From Escherichia phage vB_EcoM_PHB13, in the sequence record MK573636: a stretch of DNA of 64,000 bases; one strand, written 5' to 3'. Shown here piece by piece: positions 4,950 through 57,136 of this stretch. The translations under genes and the position numbers were made by a program. The notes beneath the pieces are model-generated. The model saw only the letters and a list, made by a program, of their open reading frames with translations, did not search any database and had not been told where the DNA came from. Positions within the stretch are counted from its first letter, which is position 1. Each line of letters starts with the position of its first letter.

Positions 4950-7058
4950 ATGAAAATGCATATTGATAATGAAGAAGTATTTGGCAGTGACTTGAGCGGT
5001 GCGGTTGATTTTTCACTGAAAGCAAGTAGCAAGGCTTTTATGGTGCTTTCTAAGAACACTTATCAATATTGTGAGCGTGCTTGCGTCCGTGAGTATTCGT
5101 GCAATGCTACCGACACTCACAAAGAAGCCGGAACCTTAGATCGTCCGTTTGATATTCATTTACCGACTGCAATCGAACCGTATTTTTCTGTGCGTGATTA
5201 TGGTACTGGTATTCCGTCTAAGAAAGAATTAGAACAACTGTTTACGGTTTACTTTGAATCAACAAAAGACCAGACTAATGACTATATCGGGTCTTTTGGT
5301 TTGGGTGCGAAGTCTGCTTATAGCTATACCGACACCTTTACAATCGTAAACTATTACAATGGTCGCGCTTATGGCTTTACGGCATTTGTGCAAAACTCTA
5401 TGCCGAAAATGGTGCAGATTTTCGACGAACCGACCTATGAAGACAATGGTCTGAAAATCACTATTCCGGTGAAAGAAAAAGATATTAAAACATGGCATCG
5501 AGAAGCACAATTTGTACTGCGTCATTTTGGGGAACATAAACCGAATATCAACGCAATCGAAATTAACTATTTCCCTAGCTTTGATAATTATTATGTGTGT
5601 AATGGGCGTGATAACGATTCCTACGTGGTATATGCAATCATGGGTAAGATCCAGTATCCAATCCCGTATGAATATATTCGCGGAACATGGTTAGAAGCTG
5701 TAAACCGCCAGCACCAGACCATTTACATTAATTTTGAGTTGGGTGATCTGGACCTGATGCCATCGCGTGAAGAAGTTCACTTGTCAATTGAGACTAAAGC
5801 GAACATCGAAAAACGTATTGCAGAAATCAATGAAATGATGTTGGAAAAGGTTAAAGAAAAGATCGCCAGCATTGAAACAGAGCGTAAACTTGCTCAATTT
5901 ATGAGCGAGTATTCATCGACTCAACGCAATATTATTGGCAAGATGGGTAAGATCGGACAATGGGATGATCCGGTAGCAATCTATAATAAGTTTGTGAATG
6001 CTGGCAAAGATTCACCCAATGACGTAGAAGGACAGGTGTATACTCTGTATCATACTCGTCACACAATCAGTAAATTGCGCCCTGCTTTCGTTAGCAGTCA
6101 ATACAACATTACGCATTTTGTATGGATGCATAAAGAAGATATTACGTGTCTTATTGATGATACCGATAAACCGAAACTGCGTGCACTGACTCTTAACGGC
6201 ATGGTCCAGGAATACGGCATCAATAAAAAGGTGCTGGTGTTCCGTCAGAACAACGAAAAACATATGGAGACTTTCGAGTACATCAAACAGTATTATGATG
6301 ATTCTGAAATGACCGTGATTAAGGTATCAGAGGCCGATGATCTTCGTGCTAAAGCAATTAAGCCGGAGAAGACCGAGCGTACACAACGTGAATCAACTCC
6401 TAAGCTGCCTAACGTGTATATCATGGAAAAGATTGGTGACAGTTGGCATAAAACCAGCCATCATATGAAAGCGGCAGAGATTCGCGAGTTATCAGGCTTG
6501 CACATGTTCCGCGTGGGTGATGCATTCGAAAGCCGTAGCCGTCAATCGATCTATAATGAAAATACATTACACACGGCGCTTGACTACTTCGGGGTAACAA
6601 AGTATATTATTACCCGTAACGAGACACAAAAATATCTCGTTGACGAACAATTGGAATGTGCGCTAGAATTTGTTCGCGGTAAGCTGGCTGGTCTGGCTAA
6701 GAAGGTTAAGACCAATCATCTGGGGTATGGCGAATATCTGGGTGTGATCACTATGTTGTTTCATGACGATGAACTAGAACGCTGTGTTCCAGAATTTATT
6801 GACAGACTGTACGGTCGTCATTATAATAAAGAGGTTTCCAAGTTACTCCTTCGTACTCGTTGGATTATGGACGAAGAAACTAAAAAGATCTGTGATGAAA
6901 AATTCACGGCAGCAAACGAACGAATTAAAGCAGTTTGTGCGAAGTTTAAAGAGAATAGCCCGTTACTGTATGATATTGTAGATAACTGGTATCGTATTCT
7001 GCATAACGACAAACGCGCACAAGACTTTATGAAACTGGTTAAGAATGTTAAATTTTAA
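4950..7058 (+). CDS. rIIA: rIIA protein (702 aa)
   Basis: Size and HATPase-like N-terminal region (DYGTGIP...GSFGLGAKSAY) match T4 rIIA; it sits between the topoisomerase gene and rIIB as in T4. Confidence 0.85.
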   Translation: MKMHIDNEEVFGSDLSGAVDFSLKASSKAFMVLSKNTYQYCERACVREYSCNATDTHKEAGTLDRPFDIHLPTAIEPYFSVRDYGTGIPSKKELEQLFTVYFESTKDQTNDYIGSFGLGAKSAYSYTDTFTIVNYYNGRAYGFTAFVQNSMPKMVQIFDEPTYEDNGLKITIPVKEKDIKTWHREAQFVLRHFGEHKPNINAIEINYFPSFDNYYVCNGRDNDSYVVYAIMGKIQYPIPYEYIRGTWLEAVNRQHQTIYINFELGDLDLMPSREEVHLSIETKANIEKRIAEINEMMLEKVKEKIASIETERKLAQFMSEYSSTQRNIIGKMGKIGQWDDPVAIYNKFVNAGKDSPNDVEGQVYTLYHTRHTISKLRPAFVSSQYNITHFVWMHKEDITCLIDDTDKPKLRALTLNGMVQEYGINKKVLVFRQNNEKHMETFEYIKQYYDDSEMTVIKVSEADDLRAKAIKPEKTERTQRESTPKLPNVYIMEKIGDSWHKTSHHMKAAEIRELSGLHMFRVGDAFESRSRQSIYNENTLHTALDYFGVTKYIITRNETQKYLVDEQLECALEFVRGKLAGLAKKVKTNHLGYGEYLGVITMLFHDDELERCVPEFIDRLYGRHYNKEVSKLLLRTRWIMDEETKKICDEKFTAANERIKAVCAKFKENSPLLYDIVDNWYRILHNDKRAQDFMKLVKNVKF

Positions 7059-48022: not shown

Positions 48023-48202
48023 ATGAACTTCAACGAAATCATCGCTAAAATCCGCTACAACGAAGAAACCATTGAACTGATGCAAAACAATATCACCAAT
48101 GGATATATGATTGCAGCGTCACAAGAAATCATTGATTTGACGGTAGCAGAAAATGCTCAGTTGAAACATCAACTTTCAACGGCTGGCGTGATTGTTATGT
48201 AA
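48023..48202 (+). CDS. hypothetical protein (59 aa)
   Basis: MNFNEIIAKIRYNEETIELMQ... after AGGAGAATCAATT-ATG. Confidence 0.45.
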   Translation: MNFNEIIAKIRYNEETIELMQNNITNGYMIAASQEIIDLTVAENAQLKHQLSTAGVIVM

Positions 48203-49131: not shown

Positions 49132-49165
49132 ACACACATACCAACGAGATATAGGAGAATCAAAA

Positions 49166-49333
49166 ATGTTCCAGACTAAAGCAGAATGCGAAGCATACAT
49201 TGTAGCAAACCACGGTGAAGACTACCTGAAATTCGATATCGTAGTAGCACAGAAGATCACCGGAATGGTTGCAAAATATCTGGGTGTTAAAGAAGGTTAC
49301 TATCCTAGCAACGCACCAGAAATTAACAAATAA
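49166..49333 (+). CDS. small protein (55 aa), copy 1 of a duplicated gene
   Basis: MFQTKAECEAYIVANHGEDYLKFDIVVAQKITGMVAKYLGVKEGYYPSNAPEINK; near-identical to 52424-52591. Confidence 0.6.
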   Translation: MFQTKAECEAYIVANHGEDYLKFDIVVAQKITGMVAKYLGVKEGYYPSNAPEINK

Positions 49334-49336
49334 TAG

Positions 49337-49589: not shown

Positions 49590-49868
49590 ATGATGCGAAT
49601 TACTGCAACGCTGGATAAGACACACAAAGAAAGATTTTTCGGTATGATCTTAAAAACGCCGATTTTCGATAATTACCTTTATGTTGACTATAACGGTCAC
49701 ATTAGCTATAAATGTAAAAATGATATTCGTGATTCCTTTGGTGATAAATCACAAGCCGATATTCACGATCATTGGTGGAACCATGACGAACCTTTACGGG
49801 TTATCGCAGTTGATGTAAAAACAACAAAAGAAGCTGATAAGGTAGTGAATGATTATGAGCAAATTTAA
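49590..49868 (+). CDS. H-x-H-W family paralogue 3 (92 aa)
   Basis: ...NYLYVDYNGHISY...DIHDHWWNHDEPLRVIAVDV... Confidence 0.55.
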   Translation: MMRITATLDKTHKERFFGMILKTPIFDNYLYVDYNGHISYKCKNDIRDSFGDKSQADIHDHWWNHDEPLRVIAVDVKTTKEADKVVNDYEQI

Positions 49869-50064
49869 AGATTATAAAGCATATCAACAGATCTTGCGAG
49901 TATACGAACCAGAGTTCGCCGAAAAGATGATGGAAGATGCATCAAAATGCCCGTCCTTTTCTGGAAACAAAAACCATTATTCTACTGGTATTGTATCATG
50001 GAAAGAAACCGCATATACTCAACAATGGATAGATGTGTTTTCAAAAACTCTTGATTGGTGTTAA
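49855..50064 (+). CDS. small protein, MSKFKDY family copy 1
   Basis: MSKFKDYKAYQQI...MMEDASKC...; tandem paralogue of the next ORF. Confidence 0.5.
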   Translation: MSKFKDYKAYQQILRVYEPEFAEKMMEDASKCPSFSGNKNHYSTGIVSWKETAYTQQWIDVFSKTLDWC

Positions 50065-50066
50065 TT

Positions 50067-50282
50067 ATGAGTAAATTTAAAGATTATCGAGCATATAAAG
50101 CGATCTGCGATATATTCGATGAAAAGACCGCTCATGCAATGATGGAAGATGCAGAACAATATGAATCATTCGTCAATTCCAAAGATTGCACAGTAAACGA
50201 GGTTGTGTGCTGGAAAGATACAAAGTATGAAGAAAAATGGATTACTGTGTATTACGGAGAACTAGAATATGAAATTAACTAA
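50067..50282 (+). CDS. small protein, MSKFKDY family copy 2
   Basis: MSKFKDYRAYKAI...MMEDAEQY... Confidence 0.5.
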   Translation: MSKFKDYRAYKAICDIFDEKTAHAMMEDAEQYESFVNSKDCTVNEVVCWKDTKYEEKWITVYYGELEYEIN

Positions 50283-51657: not shown

Positions 51658-51686
51658 TTGACACCAGATCACGCCTATAGCATAAT
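51658..51686 (+). promoter_or_regulatory. early promoter (degenerate GGGTGTAT-family cassette)
   Basis: TTGACA 51658-51663, 17-nt spacer, CATAAT 51681-51686; right arm ATACACCC kept, left arm degenerate. Confidence 0.5.
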
Positions 51687-51726
51687 ACACCCATCGAAAC
51701 GAGATACCACTTAGGAGAATCAAACA

Positions 51727-51996
51727 ATGGCGCTGACTAAAACCACTACCAACTTTGCAAAACGTCACGGCTTCGACCTTGAAATCAATAGCTTTAACGA
51801 TTACACCCTTCTGTGTGTATATGAAATCGAAAATGATTGCGAGTGGATGTTCAGCTATCGCGTAAACGAAGACGGATCTTTCACTTGGAACGGAAATATC
51901 TATCTTGCACAGGAAGTAAAAGAAGAACTTCCGGCGACTATCAAAGATGAGAAACATTTACGTCAAGTTTTAAAATTTATTTCTGAAAATATCTAA
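51727..51996 (+). CDS. hypothetical protein (89 aa)
   Basis: ORF after TTAGGAGAATCAAACA-ATG. Confidence 0.55.
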   Translation: MALTKTTTNFAKRHGFDLEINSFNDYTLLCVYEIENDCEWMFSYRVNEDGSFTWNGNIYLAQEVKEELPATIKDEKHLRQVLKFISENI

Positions 51997-52065: not shown

Positions 52066-52347
52066 ATGAAATTCATCAAAGCAACCGAAATCCTGAAAAA
52101 CAAAGAAGCATACATCGGAAACATCGTTGGTATGAACATTCGCGGCGCTGGTAGCCAGTGGACCAAACTGGTTGATGTTAAAGCTAAAGGCGATAAAATT
52201 GAGTTCACTGTAAAAATGCTTACTCATAACGCACATATGGGTATCAAGACAAAAACGATGGCAGCAGATAAAAGCATCAACTATCAGGATCTGGGTGATT
52301 GGCTGAACTGGTGCAAAATGCACAACATCGAAACTAATCACGAATAA
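52066..52347 (+). CDS. hypothetical protein (93 aa)
   Basis: ORF after GGAGAATCAAAA-ATG. Confidence 0.55.
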   Translation: MKFIKATEILKNKEAYIGNIVGMNIRGAGSQWTKLVDVKAKGDKIEFTVKMLTHNAHMGIKTKTMAADKSINYQDLGDWLNWCKMHNIETNHE

Positions 52348-52361
52348 TTTTAAAAAAGTTG

Positions 52362-52390
52362 TTGACGGGGATCGGGAGATCCCCTATAAT
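52362..52390 (+). promoter_or_regulatory. early promoter with stem-loop (PeSL-like, GGGGATC family)
   Basis: TTGACG 52362-52367, stem GGGGATC-GGGA-GATCCCC, TATAAT 52385-52390. Confidence 0.6.
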
Positions 52391-52423
52391 ACACACATAC
52401 CGAAACGAAATAGGAGAATCAAA

Positions 52424-52591
52424 ATGTTCGAGACTAAAGCAGCATGTGAAGCATATATCATTGAAACCCACGGCGAAGATTATCTGAAATTTGACATTGT
52501 AGTAGCACAGAAGATTGTAGGGATGGTTGCGAAATACCTCGGAGTTAAAGAAGGTTACTATCCAAGCAACGCACCGGAAATTAACAAATAA
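52424..52591 (+). CDS. small protein (55 aa), copy 2 of a duplicated gene
   Basis: MFETKAACEAYIIETHGEDYLKFDIVVAQKIVGMVAKYLGVKEGYYPSNAPEINK; about 90% amino-acid identity to 49166-49333. Confidence 0.6.
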   Translation: MFETKAACEAYIIETHGEDYLKFDIVVAQKIVGMVAKYLGVKEGYYPSNAPEINK

Positions 52592-52606
52592 TTTTTATAA
52601 AAAGTG

Positions 52607-52635
52607 TTGACAGGGGAGACACCCTCCCCTATAAT
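52607..52635 (+). promoter_or_regulatory. early promoter with stem-loop (PeSL-like)
   Basis: TTGACA 52607-52612, stem GGGGAG-ACACC-CTCCCC, TATAAT 52630-52635. Confidence 0.6.
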
Positions 52636-52675
52636 ACAACCATCAAGACGAGATACCACTTAGGAGAATCAAACA

Positions 52676-52927
52676 ATGGCTAACATCGAAACCGCAAAGA
52701 AAATCGCTAAAGACCTGAACGTTAAAGGCTTCCGTAAACTGAAATTACAGCGTGTACGCTACACCATCGGCAAACAGTGCTCTTTCATGAGCGAAGAAGT
52801 TGCTAACAGCCTCATTGATAACCTGATTGCGGCTGGCTGGGAAGTTGCGGATCTGAAAACTTGCCGCGAACTGGCTAACAAAGGTCTTTTAGATTCTGTT
52901 ACTATAAAACCAATGGGGGCAGCGTGA
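52676..52927 (+). CDS. hypothetical protein (83 aa), first gene of a coupled operon
   Basis: MANIETAKKIAKDL...; first 16 coding nt identical to the 54805 ORF; stop overlaps the next start (GTGA). Confidence 0.55.
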   Translation: MANIETAKKIAKDLNVKGFRKLKLQRVRYTIGKQCSFMSEEVANSLIDNLIAAGWEVADLKTCRELANKGLLDSVTIKPMGAA

Positions 52928-53169
52928 AAAGAAAATTAATTAAACGAAATAAGGAATTTTTGAATAACTGCATTAAGGTTGCTAATGGTTGGCCTTTGTT
53001 CCTCTTCCTTTATGATTGGTATTCTAAACAATCGGTAGAGGAAACACGACACTATAAGAAGATCAGAAAAGAATCATATACAAAACAAGGCCGCATTAAC
53101 GGACTTTACTTAATGTGGCACGGCAAAGAACCTTCTAAAATCTGTGTTGGATTAAAGGGGCGTATATGA
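52924..53169 (+). CDS. hypothetical basic protein (81 aa)
   Basis: GTG start overlapping the previous stop; its stop overlaps the next start (ATGA). Confidence 0.45.
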   Translation: MKRKLIKRNKEFLNNCIKVANGWPLFLFLYDWYSKQSVEETRHYKKIRKESYTKQGRINGLYLMWHGKEPSKICVGLKGRI

Positions 53170-53882
53170 AACAAAAATTAATATTCTGCAACTTTGACGG
53201 ATCGGGGATAATGGGGCTAGAATGGGCTAAAGCAGGTCATAAGGTGATCTGCTTTAATGCAGATGATGCCGACCACGGCACATACAAAAAGTATAATACC
53301 CGATTTGAACATCCAAACATTACATATGTAAACACATGGATTGATTTGGATTGGCTGGAAAGAGCAATGGACCTTGAATGGGGAAAACCAGATATTATCT
53401 TTGCATTCCCACCGTGCACCAATTTAGCTGTTAGTGGCGCTGCACACTTTGAACGAAAGAAACGAGAACAAGGACCATTAATTCAAGTTCATGATGTAAG
53501 GGCAGCTAAAATAACCGCTTATTTGGGCGAATGGTTAGAAGTTCCCTACATGATAGAGAATCCTGTAAGCGTTATCTCTAGCATGTGGCGTAAGCCTGAT
53601 TACATGTTCCACCCGTGGGAATATGGCGGTTATTTGCCGGAATATGATATACATCCTACGTTTCCTGAGTATATTGCCTCCCGTGATATGTACCCGAAAA
53701 AGACTTGCTTATGGACGGGACAAGGTTTTATAATGCCAGAAAAGAAACCTATACCGATTAATAAAGGGTACAGTAAACAGCATTCTAAGCTAGGCGGGAA
53801 AGGAACCAGAACAAAGACTATCAGGTCACTTACCCCGCGAGGATTCGCAAAGGCAGTATTTGAAGCCAATAAGGATCTATGA
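53166..53882 (+). CDS. cytosine-C5 methyltransferase-like catalytic core protein (238 aa)
   Basis: Motif I-like FCNFDGSGIMG, motif IV-like IIFAFPPCTNLAVSGA (Pro-Cys) and motif VI-like YMIENPVSV in DNA C5-MTase order; too short for a target-recognition domain. Confidence 0.5.
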   Translation: MKQKLIFCNFDGSGIMGLEWAKAGHKVICFNADDADHGTYKKYNTRFEHPNITYVNTWIDLDWLERAMDLEWGKPDIIFAFPPCTNLAVSGAAHFERKKREQGPLIQVHDVRAAKITAYLGEWLEVPYMIENPVSVISSMWRKPDYMFHPWEYGGYLPEYDIHPTFPEYIASRDMYPKKTCLWTGQGFIMPEKKPIPINKGYSKQHSKLGGKGTRTKTIRSLTPRGFAKAVFEANKDL

Positions 53883-54211
53883 TGGGATTGTTTAAGTATT
53901 CGCTAACGTCAAATTACGATAAACAAGGTCATTGCATCAGTTGCCCTGATTGTCGTAGCCATAACATCGAAAGCAAGATCACCGATCATATTGATGGACT
54001 TTGGTCGCCAGCAAGCGAGATAGAATACTATTGCGCTGATTGTGGAATTGTAGTAGCATATTGGGCATACGGATCATATGATCCTTACTTCCAGATGGGA
54101 GAGCGTTCAATCCCTGCTCTTATCTGGAGAATTAAGAACAATATCCGCCATTCATGGGATGAGTTCTTAAAAGATATTGATTTACGTGATGATCCATTCA
54201 GGAGACTATAA
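53879..54211 (+). CDS. zinc-ribbon protein (110 aa)
   Basis: CISCPDC ... CADCG: four-Cys zinc ribbon; start overlaps the previous stop (ATGA). Confidence 0.5.
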   Translation: MMGLFKYSLTSNYDKQGHCISCPDCRSHNIESKITDHIDGLWSPASEIEYYCADCGIVVAYWAYGSYDPYFQMGERSIPALIWRIKNNIRHSWDEFLKDIDLRDDPFRRL

Positions 54212-54212
54212 C

Positions 54213-54731
54213 ATGAACCGTTTGACGCCTAAACGCCGTTACTATACCAATACTAAAAACTTTGTCATCTCTGTTTATGAGGCGTGGTTAGAAGATGGCT
54301 ATATCAACATGAACCCAGATTACCAGCGTCCTTTGGTATGGGACACCGAAAACAAACGTATGTTTATCGAAAACCTGATTAATGATTTTCCGGTTGGTGC
54401 TATCGCAATGGCTAAGATTGATGATGGCTCTCGCTATGAGATCGAAATCGTGGACGGTAAACAGCGTTTAAACGCAATATTCTCCTTTATGAAAGATGAG
54501 TTTAGCATTGCTGGTAATGATGATTCTATGTTGTATTACAGTGATTTTACGCCAGCAGAAAAGCGACGTTTTCGCAATCTCGGACTACCCGCGATCATGA
54601 TGGAAGAGAGCACACGAGAAGATCGATTAGAATATTTCTACAAAACAAACTTTTTCGGTGTGCCTCAATCAGAAGATCATCGCCAGCATGTGATTGCATT
54701 ATTGCAAGATGAGCAATTAAAAAATAACTAA
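54213..54731 (+). CDS. DUF262 / ParB-like nuclease-domain protein (172 aa)
   Basis: NPDYQRPLVW...FIENLINDFPVGAI...EIVDGKQRLNAI matches the DUF262 hallmarks (YQR...W, DGQQR-like); ATG 54213 after GGAGA. Confidence 0.55.
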   Translation: MNRLTPKRRYYTNTKNFVISVYEAWLEDGYINMNPDYQRPLVWDTENKRMFIENLINDFPVGAIAMAKIDDGSRYEIEIVDGKQRLNAIFSFMKDEFSIAGNDDSMLYYSDFTPAEKRRFRNLGLPAIMMEESTREDRLEYFYKTNFFGVPQSEDHRQHVIALLQDEQLKNN

Positions 54732-54738
54732 AAAGTTG

Positions 54739-54768
54739 TTGACAGGGGGATCGGTGATCCCCTATAAT
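54739..54768 (+). promoter_or_regulatory. early promoter with stem-loop (PeSL-like, GGGGATC family)
   Basis: TTGACA 54739-54744, stem GGGGGATC-GGT-GATCCCC, TATAAT 54763-54768. Confidence 0.6.
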
Positions 54769-54804
54769 GCAAACATACCGAAACGAACTACTAAGGAGTA
54801 TCAA

Positions 54805-55017
54805 ATGGCTAACATCGAAATCATCATTACCGACGTAACTTATGACCGCATTAACGAAATCGGTACTGCTTTGCTAGAAGATGGAACAACTCGCACCATC
54901 AACTACGCAGAATACGTTGAAATGCGCGGTTGTATTAAACGAGTAGGAAAATATATCCTGATTGAAAAAGACTATTCAGGATACACATTAGAGCAATTGC
55001 TCGATGGTGCATTATAA
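54805..55017 (+). CDS. hypothetical protein (70 aa)
   Basis: MANIEIIITDVTYDRINEIG... after TAAGGAGTATCAA-ATG. Confidence 0.55.
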   Translation: MANIEIIITDVTYDRINEIGTALLEDGTTRTINYAEYVEMRGCIKRVGKYILIEKDYSGYTLEQLLDGAL

Positions 55018-55084: not shown

Positions 55085-57136
55085 ATGTTTAACTTAGAAA
55101 TCGACGATCTAATGATTGAATCTTTCGAGAAATGGCTGTTGACGGAAGAGGAAGAAAACTTTGGCAGTATTGCTCCGGTACAGTGCTTAAAGCCTAAGCA
55201 GAATCCTAAACAGCTTTTTGCAGTACAGACACGCGATAAAGATGTGATTGTCCGTCTTTGTAACTTCACCAACAAAACACCTAAAATCATTCGTATGGGT
55301 GACAAGACCGCACATGTTGTACTGTGCGAAATGAACAAAAGCGGTCGTATTGTACAGCTTAAAAATGGTCTAGGCGATAACCCGATTGCAGTTATGGCAA
55401 GTGCTTTTGATGTGGTTATGGAAACAGCCCGTAAAGCGCAATTAGACGCTGTTATGTTCCGTTTTAACGTATCCCGCATGAAAGGTAAGACCGAACTGGT
55501 TAAGCGCGTTATAGAGCGTTTGGTGCGTCGTACACCGAAGTTTGAAGTATTCCAGCAGGAAGTAATGACCAGCAAAAAGATCGCTTTAGTTGTTGTCAAG
55601 CGTCGAGGTATGGCGATTGATAAGATTAAAGGGATTAAACTTGATGAATCCTTGTTCACTAAAGTAGAAAGTGATTTAGGTGATCGCTGGGTATCTAAAG
55701 CTACTGGCGAATCTCTGACTAAAGATGAAGCATATGCGGCTAGTCTTGTGTCAGAAGAAGAACGAAACGCGGAAGCAGAACAACGCGTAGCGGCTAAATC
55801 TCGTTTGACTAAAGAAGAAATGCTGAAAACTCAAGCGACCTATAACAGCGACTATGTGAATCATCCAGAAAAAATTAATCTTAAACCGGAAGAAGATATC
55901 ACCGAAGCAGAACCTAAGAAACAGTTTAATACTCTGATTGACCGTCAAGCCTTAGAACGTTCAACCGCCCGTTCTCTGAATGACTGGACAAGTGATATTA
56001 TCACTCGCTATGGTTTCATGCGTACTATTTTTGAAAGCGAAGCCGATGCAAAATACGCAGTAAGCGAACTGGTAAAAGTTCAGGACCAATATGATCCGTT
56101 GTCTGCGGAAGTTATCGCAGCATCAATCAAACGCTTAAAAGAAATCATGAGCGAGGAAGTATTCGAAAACAAGATCACTGCGTTGGCAATGGATCGAGTA
56201 GACCAGTCTATGCCAGCAGATGTAAAAGCTGAAATGCTGCGTAGTCATATCACACAGATTAAAACCGATGCCCTTCGTAATGTTGCCTCCGGTATGTTTG
56301 AAGCAATTGCAAGTAACATGGGTGAAATGATGGCAGATATTGATCTTGACCTACCAGGCGCGGAAGGTTTTGTGTTGAGCGAATATGCGGATGCAGCATA
56401 CATCAATATGAACAACTTCCTAACCGATCGTAAGCTGGATGAGTTCGAAGGGATCGCTGACCCAGAAGAATTGGTCAAGATGTGCGACGCACTGGATAAT
56501 GCCTTCGCTAACTATGGCGTTAAACTTGATCCGGGTACTATTCTGTATCGTGGTATGGACTTCCGGTCTCAAATGTGGGAAACTGCACGTAAGCAAAAAG
56601 CGTTTTACTTTAAAAACTATGTGAGCACTTCCCTTGCACCTAACATTTTTGGCGGCTGGAATGCAAACGTGGCTAGTGCCGTTGCTGGTGTTGATTCTAT
56701 GGCTGGCTCTCGCGGTGAAGGTGGCGCGAATGTTGCTTTCTCCATTGCTGGCGCGGAAAACATCCCTGTATTGCCAGTAGGTAACAAAGCATTTGCTTAC
56801 AAAGAATGCGAGATTTTACTTCCTCGCGGTGTTGTGTTATCCTTTGATACGGTAACTCGTGCTACGGCATCGACGGATTCACAAGAAACATATTACATTG
56901 AGGCACATATTATGAACAAAAGTGAACTGGCAGCATTACAAGAATCTGGCGAAATGATCGCGGATGGTGATGCATTCATCCGTGAAGGTGTTGTTAAACC
57001 TGCTTCTGACCTGTCTTTCTCCAGATTCATTACAGAAGCTAAAACCGAACGTAAGAAAGCAGATAAGGCAACTCTACGTCAGCTTATCGCTGATCTGGTG
57101 TCTGTAGACGCAATGCCAGATAAATTTAAAATGTAA
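55085..57136 (+). CDS. alt: Alt ADP-ribosyltransferase (683 aa)
   Basis: Length equals T4 Alt (682 aa); catalytic region LYRG...YVSTSL...ECEILLPRG (R / STS / E-x-E) and C-terminus ...PDKFKM match T4 Alt (...PLKFVM). Confidence 0.85.
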   Translation: MFNLEIDDLMIESFEKWLLTEEEENFGSIAPVQCLKPKQNPKQLFAVQTRDKDVIVRLCNFTNKTPKIIRMGDKTAHVVLCEMNKSGRIVQLKNGLGDNPIAVMASAFDVVMETARKAQLDAVMFRFNVSRMKGKTELVKRVIERLVRRTPKFEVFQQEVMTSKKIALVVVKRRGMAIDKIKGIKLDESLFTKVESDLGDRWVSKATGESLTKDEAYAASLVSEEERNAEAEQRVAAKSRLTKEEMLKTQATYNSDYVNHPEKINLKPEEDITEAEPKKQFNTLIDRQALERSTARSLNDWTSDIITRYGFMRTIFESEADAKYAVSELVKVQDQYDPLSAEVIAASIKRLKEIMSEEVFENKITALAMDRVDQSMPADVKAEMLRSHITQIKTDALRNVASGMFEAIASNMGEMMADIDLDLPGAEGFVLSEYADAAYINMNNFLTDRKLDEFEGIADPEELVKMCDALDNAFANYGVKLDPGTILYRGMDFRSQMWETARKQKAFYFKNYVSTSLAPNIFGGWNANVASAVAGVDSMAGSRGEGGANVAFSIAGAENIPVLPVGNKAFAYKECEILLPRGVVLSFDTVTRATASTDSQETYYIEAHIMNKSELAALQESGEMIADGDAFIREGVVKPASDLSFSRFITEAKTERKKADKATLRQLIADLVSVDAMPDKFKM

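Follow-up and report, generated by a model that had tools for sequence, protein, structure and literature searches.

Two unrelated small early genes of a T4-type coliphage, each led by its own promoter cassette, open with the same 16 bases, ATGGCTAACATCGAAA. This identity is an isolated island outside the cassette, and we regard it as a minor curiosity and not a new mechanism. The window, that is, the whole 64-kb stretch of DNA analysed (MK573636), is the genome of an RB49/phi1-like Krischvirus, and its cassettes are the promoter-early stem-loops, or PeSLs, of an already known system (Arbiol 2010). RB49 ORF190 and ORF185 have their orthologues here in the ORFs at 52676 and 54805, respectively, which are ordinary and unrelated PeSL-driven early genes in hyperplastic region 3 of the Krischvirus genome. 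PeSL-type units number 21 in the window, and promoter-led genes 58 in RB49, clustered in the hyperplastic regions.

The PeSLs described in RB49, phi1 and JSE (PMC2839356; Comeau et al. 2014, PMC4122927) come from the same genus and the same hyperplastic region, with the same ORFs 185–194. The published coliphage elements and those of the window have a common architecture: an AT-rich tract, sigma-70 −35 and −10 hexamers, a G/C stem-loop, and a Shine–Dalgarno sequence (SD) with its ATG. They are also alike in that cassette-flanked ORFans are gained and lost among relatives, with junctions within the cassette. Promoter and terminator activity in vivo come from experiments on other PeSLs, and the same study documented frequent PeSL recombination for the region that holds ORF190 and ORF185, including an experimentally observed mini-circle with PeSL 195/194 and PeSL 191/190 as the crossover partners and with published junctions between the −10 and the SD or ATG (Arbiol 2010, PMC2839356). 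Like a lambdoid moron or an integron gene cassette, a PeSL gene is a lone gene flanked by regulatory or recombination sequences of its own, and variable regions gain and lose all three. However, morons are without the conserved flanking repeats of PeSL-led genes, and integron cassettes use attC and an integrase, whereas PeSL exchange is driven by homology between promoter repeats, with no integrase. The features at the two loci, all on the + strand, are as follows.

51658–51731, +: PeSL 195/194 with the initial 5 nt of ORF194; repeat family D12; its leader is a sibling of the ORF190 leader
52324–52333, +: additional copy of the 10-mer core AACATCGAAA, in frame within ORF193 and close to its C-terminus (HNIET)
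52587–52675, +: PeSL 191/190, orthologue of the RB49 ORF191–ORF190 intergenic region; repeat families D1/D3/D8/D12
52607–52612, +: −35 of PeSL 191/190, TTGACA, preceded by an AT-rich tract after the ORF191 stop
Between −35 and −10, +: stem-loop of PeSL 191/190 read from the sequence, GGGGAG-ACAC-CCTCCCC
52630–52635, +: −10 of PeSL 191/190, TATAAT; TTGACA-17-TATAAT matches the sigma-70 consensus at 12/12 positions
Leader of PeSL 191/190 read from the sequence, +: 40 nt, CATCAAGACGAGATACCACTT subtype, with the SD AGGAG at 52662–52666
52676–52691, +: shared 16-mer ATGGCTAACATCGAAA, copy 1; codons 1–5 plus 1 nt of the ORF190 orthologue
52676–52927, +: ORF190 orthologue, 83 aa, phrog_14908
53963–53972, +: extra in-frame copy of AACATCGAAA within ORF188, which is zinc-ribbon-like (HNIES)
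54719–54804, +: PeSL 187/185, chimeric with respect to RB49, which has an extra ORF186 at the site
Left part of PeSL 187/185, +: AT-rich tract, −35 at 54739–54744, stem-loop GGGGGATCGGTGATCCCC, −10 at 54763–54768 and GCA, like RB49 PeSL187/186
Right part of PeSL 187/185, +: CATACCGAAACGAACTACTAAGGAGTATCAA, with the SD at 54793–54798, like RB49 PeSL186/185
54805–54820, +: shared 16-mer ATGGCTAACATCGAAA, copy 2; codons 1–5 plus 1 nt of the ORF185 orthologue
54805–55017, +: ORF185 orthologue, 70 aa, phrog_10679; the final small ORF before alt (55085–57136)

In both PeSLs the AT-rich tract runs from the upstream stop codon, with TAATTTTTATAAAAAGTG before 52607 and TAAAAAGTTG before 54739 (repeat family D3). 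The promoter of PeSL 187/185 (TTGACA-18-TATAAT, 54739–54768) is likewise a 12/12 match to the sigma-70 consensus, with a G-run/C-run stem-loop, GGGGGATC-GG-TGATCCCC, between the two hexamers. With sigma-70 hexamers 17–18 nt apart, an AT-rich tract, a stem-loop, and an SD with a start codon, both cassettes are predicted promoters of PeSL architecture. True duplicates of a PeSL together with its gene are found nearby, ORF191 and ORF205 being 85% identical over 172 nt. The PeSL-free block at 52924–54731 has the same GC content as its flanks, and compositional foreignness was rejected for it.

As the earlier note had reported, the two ORFs share an exact start and then part: beyond base 16 they agree at 6/20 positions, a random level. 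The 64-kb window contains exactly two occurrences of ATGGCTAACATCGAAA, both on the + strand at an ORF start with a Shine–Dalgarno sequence 6–10 nt upstream, and no further matches with up to two mismatches were found there (0.06 expected). The match covers every synonymous site and thus goes beyond the peptide level. In the window the identity reaches 17 nt by way of an A at −1, although metagenomic variants differ in the spacer at that point. Both copies are unchanged in RB49, kaaroe, JSE, JK32, phiS, three IMG/VR contigs and four metagenome contigs, and MIZ4 has the ORF185 copy alone, likewise unchanged. The proteins themselves are not homologous: BLASTP between them gave no alignment, hhalign of the two family profiles gave a probability of 0.1%, and they belong to different PHROGs. 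In both protein families it is at the N-terminus that variation, not conservation, is greatest.

The earlier note had taken the identity as a sign that conservation of the promoter/leader unit carries on beyond the start codon, a proposal that alignment of the cassette-downstream starts did not support. When the 21 cassette-led ORFs of the window were anchored at their ATG, information content was at background immediately after the start codon, from +4. Nor is the identity contiguous with a shared leader. The ORF190 and ORF185 leaders are of different subtypes, rank only 13th and 19th of 57 as each other's matches, and align with a 3-nt indel that separates them from the 16-mer just before the ATG. 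The close relative of the ORF190 leader is instead that of ORF194: in RB49 the two are identical at 36/36 positions over the 36-nt leader, and the match stops at +5 (ATGGC), diverging at +6, while in the window they share 31 nt exactly (GAGATACCACTTAGGAGAATCAAACAATGGC). Isoleucine stands at codon 4 in 8/21 cassette-led ORFs of the window, as counted from the listed starts, and a general N-terminal motif M-[KA]-x-I-[EK] was considered but dropped because it was not enriched genome-wide in RB49 (10/58 versus 23/221, Fisher p=0.17).

Junction positions agree with these alignments. The earlier note had also placed recombination junctions within the 5′ end of the coding sequence, but in all four natural rearrangements that we mapped (the ORF186 indel, the ORF192 indel, the MIZ4 deletion of ORF191–187 and the JK32 deletion of ORF191) they lie upstream of the Shine–Dalgarno sequence, in the AT-rich, −35, −10 or early-leader part. 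Genes were therefore gained or lost in these four cases by junctions inside the element, as for published PeSLs, and exchange within the coding sequence is retained only as a rival explanation for the one pair. The mobile recombining unit is the known PeSL, which reaches no further than the start codon, and each gene has its own gene-proximal leader. In the published descriptions the 3′ limit of a PeSL is the start codon, and coding sequence is unmentioned in PMC2839356 and PMC4122927; the 16-nt identity lies past that limit, is confined to a single pair and is not an extension of leader homology.

Chance expectation was estimated from a null in which codons were permuted within each codon position over the annotated RB49 starts. 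The probability that any pair shares at least 16 nt is then 0.0035–0.0045 among the 58 promoter-led RB49 genes and 0.03 among all 279 RB49 genes. The shared start is therefore unusual, rarer than chance at roughly the 1e-2 level, but not overwhelming, since it was spotted post hoc. The next-longest shared starts among cassette-led RB49 ORFs are 12 and 11 nt, which matches the null; no other cassette pair in the RB49 genome is above chance in start identity, and no second such pair was seen among the 58 cassette-led genes and their divergent relatives. The earlier note had allowed for a chance match confined to these two genes and this genome. The second part of that can be set aside, since ATGGCTAACATCGAAA was found in every Krischvirus genome inspected, whereas the first part stands, none of the other cassettes having it. 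An exact scan of IMG/VR returned 31 loci, of which three are Krischvirus (ORF190 or ORF185) and the others unrelated phages, where the string opens unrelated genes and its total is estimated to be near random expectation. A metagenome scan for an SD followed by the 16-mer likewise gave ORF190 and ORF185 alone, with no other PeSL-type SD leading ATGGCTAACATCGAAA, so that the search for a third type of ORF with this start was negative in the Krischvirus contigs of IMG/VR and in the metagenome scan.

We consider that the chances are about even that the shared start is the product of coincidence or convergence, in an initiation region that is codon-optimised and unstructured. Drift under shared constraints, rather than DNA exchange, would then have given the 16-nt match. 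Both genes use the host-optimal codons GCT AAC ATC GAA, and both would need an A-rich, unstructured initiation region; the 5′ regions of the two genes fold more weakly than 191/200 and 199/200 shuffles. Each family already had a portion of the string: in the ORF190 family this is x-I-E, and in the ORF185 family it is M-A together with a variable N-terminus. Homologues of ORF190 start MNIEAAKK or MLTIETAKK, and because I-E-[T/A]-A-K-K is kept in homologues down to 57–60% identity it is ancestral in that family. In the ORF185 family the N-termini vary (MVTSKK, MAIRQ, MAIKV, MTIKT) ahead of a conserved core from about residue 6–7; an equal-length homologue starts MAIRQIVIT and the homologue in a T1-like phage starts ATGGCTATCAAAG. 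The distant homologue P0018 has an N-terminus equal in length to that of ORF185, with M-A common to both. Counting against coincidence are the permutation probabilities (about 0.004 when only cassette-led genes are considered, about 0.03 when all genes are), the identity at synonymous sites, the separation of only 2.1 kb within one recombination-prone region, a local excess of the core AACATCGAAA, a match in register between ORF185 bases 12–21 and ORF209, and the confinement to codons 2–6 of the divergence between ORF185 and its nearest outgroup, P0016.

The main competitor is exchange of DNA within the coding sequence, by which the ORF190 start was copied onto ORF185 in a Krischvirus ancestor. 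Such a recombinational origin stays live for this pair because the identity is real and rarer than chance would give, at roughly the 1e-2 level, although we hold it to be rather unlikely. It could have proceeded by an ectopic templated conversion patch of ∼13–17 nt, or by an illegitimate microhomology junction at codon 5/6, in which case the leader would have to have been replaced subsequently by a PeSL crossover between SD and ATG. In its favour are the low probability under the permutation null (about 0.004), the identity of all synonymous positions, and the arrangement of candidate donor and recipient as direct repeats, 2.1 kb from each other, where PeSL recombination is documented as frequent. 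The polarity is also plausible, N-I-E being ancestral in the ORF190 family and MANIE lineage-specific in the ORF185 family. Compared with P0016, the first five codons are the sole unconserved part of ORF185: nucleotide identity over codons 2–6 is ∼40% by hand count, whereas the residues after codon 6 (IIxDVTYDRINEIGTA) are almost fully conserved, P0016 being a single outgroup. Since crossovers between −10 and ATG are documented, the leader could have been swapped after the exchange. Templated mutagenesis from imperfect repeats is reportedly established in T4, through work by Ripley and by Schultz and Drake in 2008. As is seen in the isolated 16-nt island, such templated or short-patch ectopic events would make nearby direct quasi-repeats identical over a stretch of several bases while the flanks are not transferred, but here no polymorphic intermediate was found among the genomes compared. 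Against exchange, the adjoining upstream leaders are dissimilar and carry the 3-nt indel, so that two events or an unusually short patch are required. Every junction that was mapped falls before the ATG, a second example is absent among the 58 RB49 cassette-led genes and divergent relatives, the ORF185 N-terminus has the same length as that of P0018 and shares its M-A, and co-variation of the two starts, a sign of ongoing conversion, was not found among the genomes compared. The element that bears P0016 also has ORF190 and ORF193 homologues. Concerted evolution of the two starts was rejected in that element, whose ORF190 homologue is N-terminally extended (128 aa), with the starts unrelated.

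A broader version, in which PeSL-linked exchange or template switching is at times resolved a few codons into the downstream gene and ORFans swap promoters together with first codons, seems to us doubtful. On this view ORF185 would owe its 5′ end to ORF190 and might bear a second patch in common with ORF209, and repeated short-patch copying in this hyperplastic region would have left the AACATCGAAA copies as its traces. AACATCGAAA occurs six times in RB49, all on the early strand, where about 0.5 are expected, with four copies within 3.3 kb; four fall in 2.5 kb against about 0.2 expected locally. It is the sole non-PeSL 10-mer with at least four copies in 4 kb, although comparable clusters appear in 8% of genome-wide codon shuffles. 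The ORF193 copy is polymorphic (AATATCGAAA) in kaaroe and metagenomic Krischvirus contigs, with D-I-E or K-I-E in outgroups, and the ORF188 copy is polymorphic (AACATTGAAA) in metagenomic relatives, with D-I-A or D-I-D in outgroups. Among Krischviruses these extra copies differ synonymously, with AAT for AAC and ATT for ATC, which is how ordinary coding sequence behaves. The idea that AACATCGAAA is an inserted element or a functional site was rejected because outgroups have x-I-E or x-I-x at the orthologous positions, the extra copies drift synonymously and 8% of shuffles give a comparable cluster. The 10-mer also resembles a PeSL leader start, ACATCGAAAC, and the related CATCGAAAC opens many PeSL transcripts. 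A decayed PeSL in the 3′ end of ORF193 was considered, where AAAATGCACAACATCGAAAC resembles a −10 with leader; there is no −35 at usable spacing, and homologues have ordinary conserved coding sequence at the site.

It is improbable that the string or AACATCGAAA is a selected signal kept identical in both genes, whether a translation-initiation enhancer, a site where early mRNA or DNA is bound by a protein or cleaved, or an N-terminal signal. The excess of AACATCGAAA in RB49 on the early strand only, its standing as the sole such repeated 10-mer, the use of CATCGAAAC at the start of many PeSL transcripts and the unusually unstructured 5′ regions would fit a signal. However, the two extra copies are synonymously polymorphic, the copies are found in different ORFs, at the N-terminus in some and internally or towards the C-terminus in others, the motif is absent in homologues elsewhere, a comparable cluster arises in 8% of codon shuffles, and most other strong PeSL-led genes start without the string. 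The shared start matches no Rfam family and forms no stable structure, which removes the RNA explanations. By reasoning alone, MANIE was also set aside as a capsid-targeting or protease site, N-I-E being unlike the L/I-x-E of the T4 prohead protease and the peptide too short. Ancient paralogy, with only the N-terminal five codons spared divergence, is effectively refuted. Both are small PeSL-led ORFs of the same region, and PeSL-plus-gene duplication exists nearby (ORF191/ORF205), but the lack of a BLASTP alignment, the hhalign probability of 0.1%, the different PHROGs and the variability of the N-terminus in both families all speak against it.

It has been proposed that T4-type phages shuffle genes as modules with PeSLs as a general vehicle. 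Were PeSL exchanges to cut coding sequence regularly, chimeric N-termini and new ORFans would result, and the picture of hyperplastic-region evolution would be altered. The main use of this case is as a worked check of the published PeSL model on a new genome: the module boundary is as in the literature, at or before the start codon, with the shared 16 nt a single exception of modest statistical weight.

The ORFs at 52676 and 54805 (ORF190 and ORF185; ORF numbers follow the RB49 annotation) begin with the same 16-mer, ATGGCTAACATCGAAA, which encodes MANIE; this shared start is one minor, unreported detail of a system that is already known. A 3-kb query around the two genes matched 58 phage records at 94–97% identity, nearly all full-length, and all 58 belong to Krischvirus (RB49, phi1, JSE and relatives; T4-type myoviruses of E. 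coli). The cassettes of the earlier note are the published promoter-early stem-loops (PeSLs), made up of an AT-rich tract, sigma-70 -35 and -10 elements, a G/C stem-loop, a Shine-Dalgarno sequence (SD) and the ATG (Arbiol et al. 2010, PMC2839356; Comeau et al. 2014, PMC4122927). The locus studied here, eight PeSLs in ∼5 kb, is the example region HPR3 with ORFan192 of Arbiol et al., and the mini-circle crossover that they sequenced is exactly the ORF190 and ORF194 cassette pair (PMC2839356).

Features of the locus (window coordinates unless stated)
52676–52927: ORF190, 83 aa (RB49 annotation)
54805–55017: ORF185, 70 aa, final small ORF before alt (RB49 annotation)
52924–54731: block with 81-aa ORF, C5 methyltransferase, zinc-ribbon-like ORF188 and GmrSD_N-domain protein
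52348–52423: single chimeric PeSL left by the absence of ORFan192 (vs RB49)
54719–54804: single chimeric PeSL left by the absence of ORF186 (vs RB49)
52348–54804: window equivalent of the ∼2.4 kb PeSL-to-PeSL deletion in MIZ4 and MIZ5 (L037, phage MIZ4, 2160–2250)
52324–52333 (ORF193), 52682–52691 (ORF190), 53963–53972 (ORF188), 54811–54820 (ORF185): 10-mer AACATCGAAA, in frame as N-I-E
5802–5811: further copy of AACATCGAAA

Within the window the 16-mer has exactly two copies, one at each of these starts, and no near-match of up to two mismatches lies elsewhere in it. Each copy is preceded at 6–10 nt by an SD, and the promoters upstream of both match the consensus at 12/12 positions. Past base 16 the two ORFs agree at 6/20 positions, which is random; their proteins give no BLASTP alignment, their family alignments score an hhalign probability of 0.1%, and they fall in different PHROGs, both of unknown function. 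The identical start followed by full divergence is therefore as the earlier note described it. The proteins are unrelated at every level tested, and paralogy, for all the identity of the starts, is effectively excluded.

It had also been proposed that the promoter/leader unit runs past the start codon. When 21 cassette-led ORFs were aligned on the ATG, information was ∼1 bit at the SD positions and at background from +4 on. A bump at codons 4–5 was rejected as a cassette feature (genome-wide Ile4 10/58 versus 23/221, p = 0.17). In mutual similarity the leaders of ORF190 (CATCAAGACGAGATACCACTTAGGAGAATCAAACA) and ORF185 (CATACCGAAACGAACTACTAAGGAGTATCAA) come only 13th and 19th of 57, with a 3-nt indel directly before the ATG, and the 16-mer is no continuation of a shared leader. 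The leaders of ORF190 and ORF194, identical at 36/36 positions in RB49 and over 31 nt in the window, precede genes that split at +6, past ATGGC. These comparisons contradict the proposed extension as a general property of the cassettes.

Nor do natural rearrangements at these genes place recombination junctions inside 5' coding sequence, as had been suggested (0/4). RB49 carries an additional ORF186 between ORF187 and ORF185; in the window, which lacks it, the remaining PeSL (54719–54804) is a chimera joined between the -10 and the shared CATACCGAAACGAA. ORF192 of RB49, also missing in phi1, is absent from the window, and the junction falls within the AT-rich tract at the ORF193 stop. In MIZ4 and MIZ5, ORF191 to ORF187 are missing and the junction is at the AT-rich/-35 part; JK32 lacks ORF191, with the junction between the -10 and the ORF190 leader. 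In all four cases, the ORF moved jointly with ∼30 nt of gene-proximal leader.

The MIZ4/MIZ5 deletion removes a predicted C5 DNA methyltransferase and a GmrSD_N/DUF262-domain protein. The four-gene block between ORF190 and ORF185 has no internal cassettes, and its AT skew is below that of cassette-led ORFs at equal GC content. A PeSL and its gene are duplicated nearby (49163–49334 versus 52421–52592, 85% identity over 172 nt), the pair being 55-aa ORFs at 49166 (ORF205) and 52424 (ORF191), each with its own cassette. Adjacent small ORFs at 49852–49948 and 50064–50160 have 97-nt starts that are 71% identical (ATGAGCAAATTTAAAGATTAT...) and look like tandem paralogues, with no cassette between.

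We give about even weight to the most likely reading, that coincidence or convergence within a constrained initiation region accounts for the 16-mer. As a null, codons were permuted within each codon position across all 279 annotated RB49 starts, preserving position-specific codon bias, including the contribution of ORF190 and ORF185 themselves. The probability of any pair sharing at least 16 nt was 0.0035–0.0045 for the 58 promoter-led genes and ∼0.03 for all 279; the next-longest shared starts (13, 12 and 11 nt) are as the null predicts. A broader test, for in-register runs of at least 13 anywhere in the first 36 nt, gave p ∼ 0.02. These tests place the match at about the 10^-2 level, which is unusual and meaningful, though not compelling given that it was noticed post hoc. 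A chance match confined to these two cassettes and this genome had been named as the alternative; the 16-mer is invariant in ORF190 and ORF185 across every Krischvirus genome and contig inspected. A metagenome scan for a third ORF with a PeSL-type SD and the 16-mer returned only these two. Divergent relatives with PeSL-like cassettes gave no shared starts. Only three of 31 exact IMG/VR loci are Krischvirus, the others lying on unrelated contigs, often at the start of unrelated genes, and we estimate the number of these others to be near the random count. Both 5' mRNA regions show weaker structure than 191/200 and 199/200 shuffles, with no Rfam match; the 5' UTR plus first codons (52642–52720 and 54774–54850) form folds much less stable than those of dinucleotide shuffles (z = +1.5 and +1.9). 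Such weak folding fits selection for an open initiation region and is expected of strongly translated early genes. Selection for a motif is an unlikely explanation.

Less probable, but still a serious rival, is that a short ectopic conversion or an illegitimate junction carried the start of ORF190 to ORF185. Outgroup homologues of ORF190 (57–73% identity) start MNIEAAKK (ATGAACATCGAAGCA), MLTIETAKK, MLNAAKK and MKVDAAKK; x-I-E-[T/A]-A-K-K is thus ancestral in this family, with only the first two to three codons varying. ORF185 homologues, found in T1-like Drexlerviridae and, as P0016 (56% identity), in an unrelated element, start MVTSKKIII, MAIRQIVIT, MTIKTIVFV and MAIKVTKKETKII. Codons 2–6 of ORF185 and P0016 have ∼40% nucleotide identity (hand count from the alignment), and the residues after codon 6 (IIxDVTYDRINEIGTA) are almost fully conserved; a further homologue, P0018, has an N-terminus of equal length and shares the M-A start. 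Copying, if this hypothetical event occurred, ran from ORF190 to ORF185.

A 2.5-kb stretch of the window contains four copies of AACATCGAAA, each in a different ORF. RB49 has six, all on the early strand, against ∼0.5 expected; 4/8 of its N-I-E tripeptides are concentrated in 3.3 kb, and AACATCGAAA, which resembles the opening of many PeSL leaders (ACATCGAAAC), is its sole non-PeSL 10-mer with at least four copies in 4 kb. The extra copies in ORF193 and ORF188 behave as ordinary coding sequence, since outgroups have orthologous residues there (D-I-E, K-I-E, D-I-A) and both sites vary synonymously among Krischviruses (AAT for AAC, ATT for ATC). A comparable cluster arises in 8% of genome-wide codon shuffles. 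We take the cluster as weak, unexplained support for local non-randomness rather than as a functional site. Bases 12–21 of ORF185 (CGAAATCATC, E-I-I; 54816–54825) match the ORF209 orthologue (48034–48043, start 48023) in the same register, so that with the ORF190 match its first 21 nt can be tiled by two neighbouring genes; the leader closest to ORF185's is also that of ORF209. In-register runs of at least 10 nt among cassette-led pairs numbered 2 against 0.34 expected (p ∼ 0.06).

Of the ORF185-family occurrences in T1-like Drexlerviridae and in the element (L033 6001–7390; L051; L052), the element codes for OmpW-like proteins as well as a serine recombinase, and carries ORF185, ORF193 and ORF190 homologues in changed order, the last with a 45-aa N-terminal extension. 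The PeSL boundary is where the literature placed it, and ORFans of the ORF185, ORF190 and ORF193 types seem to travel widely, partly together.
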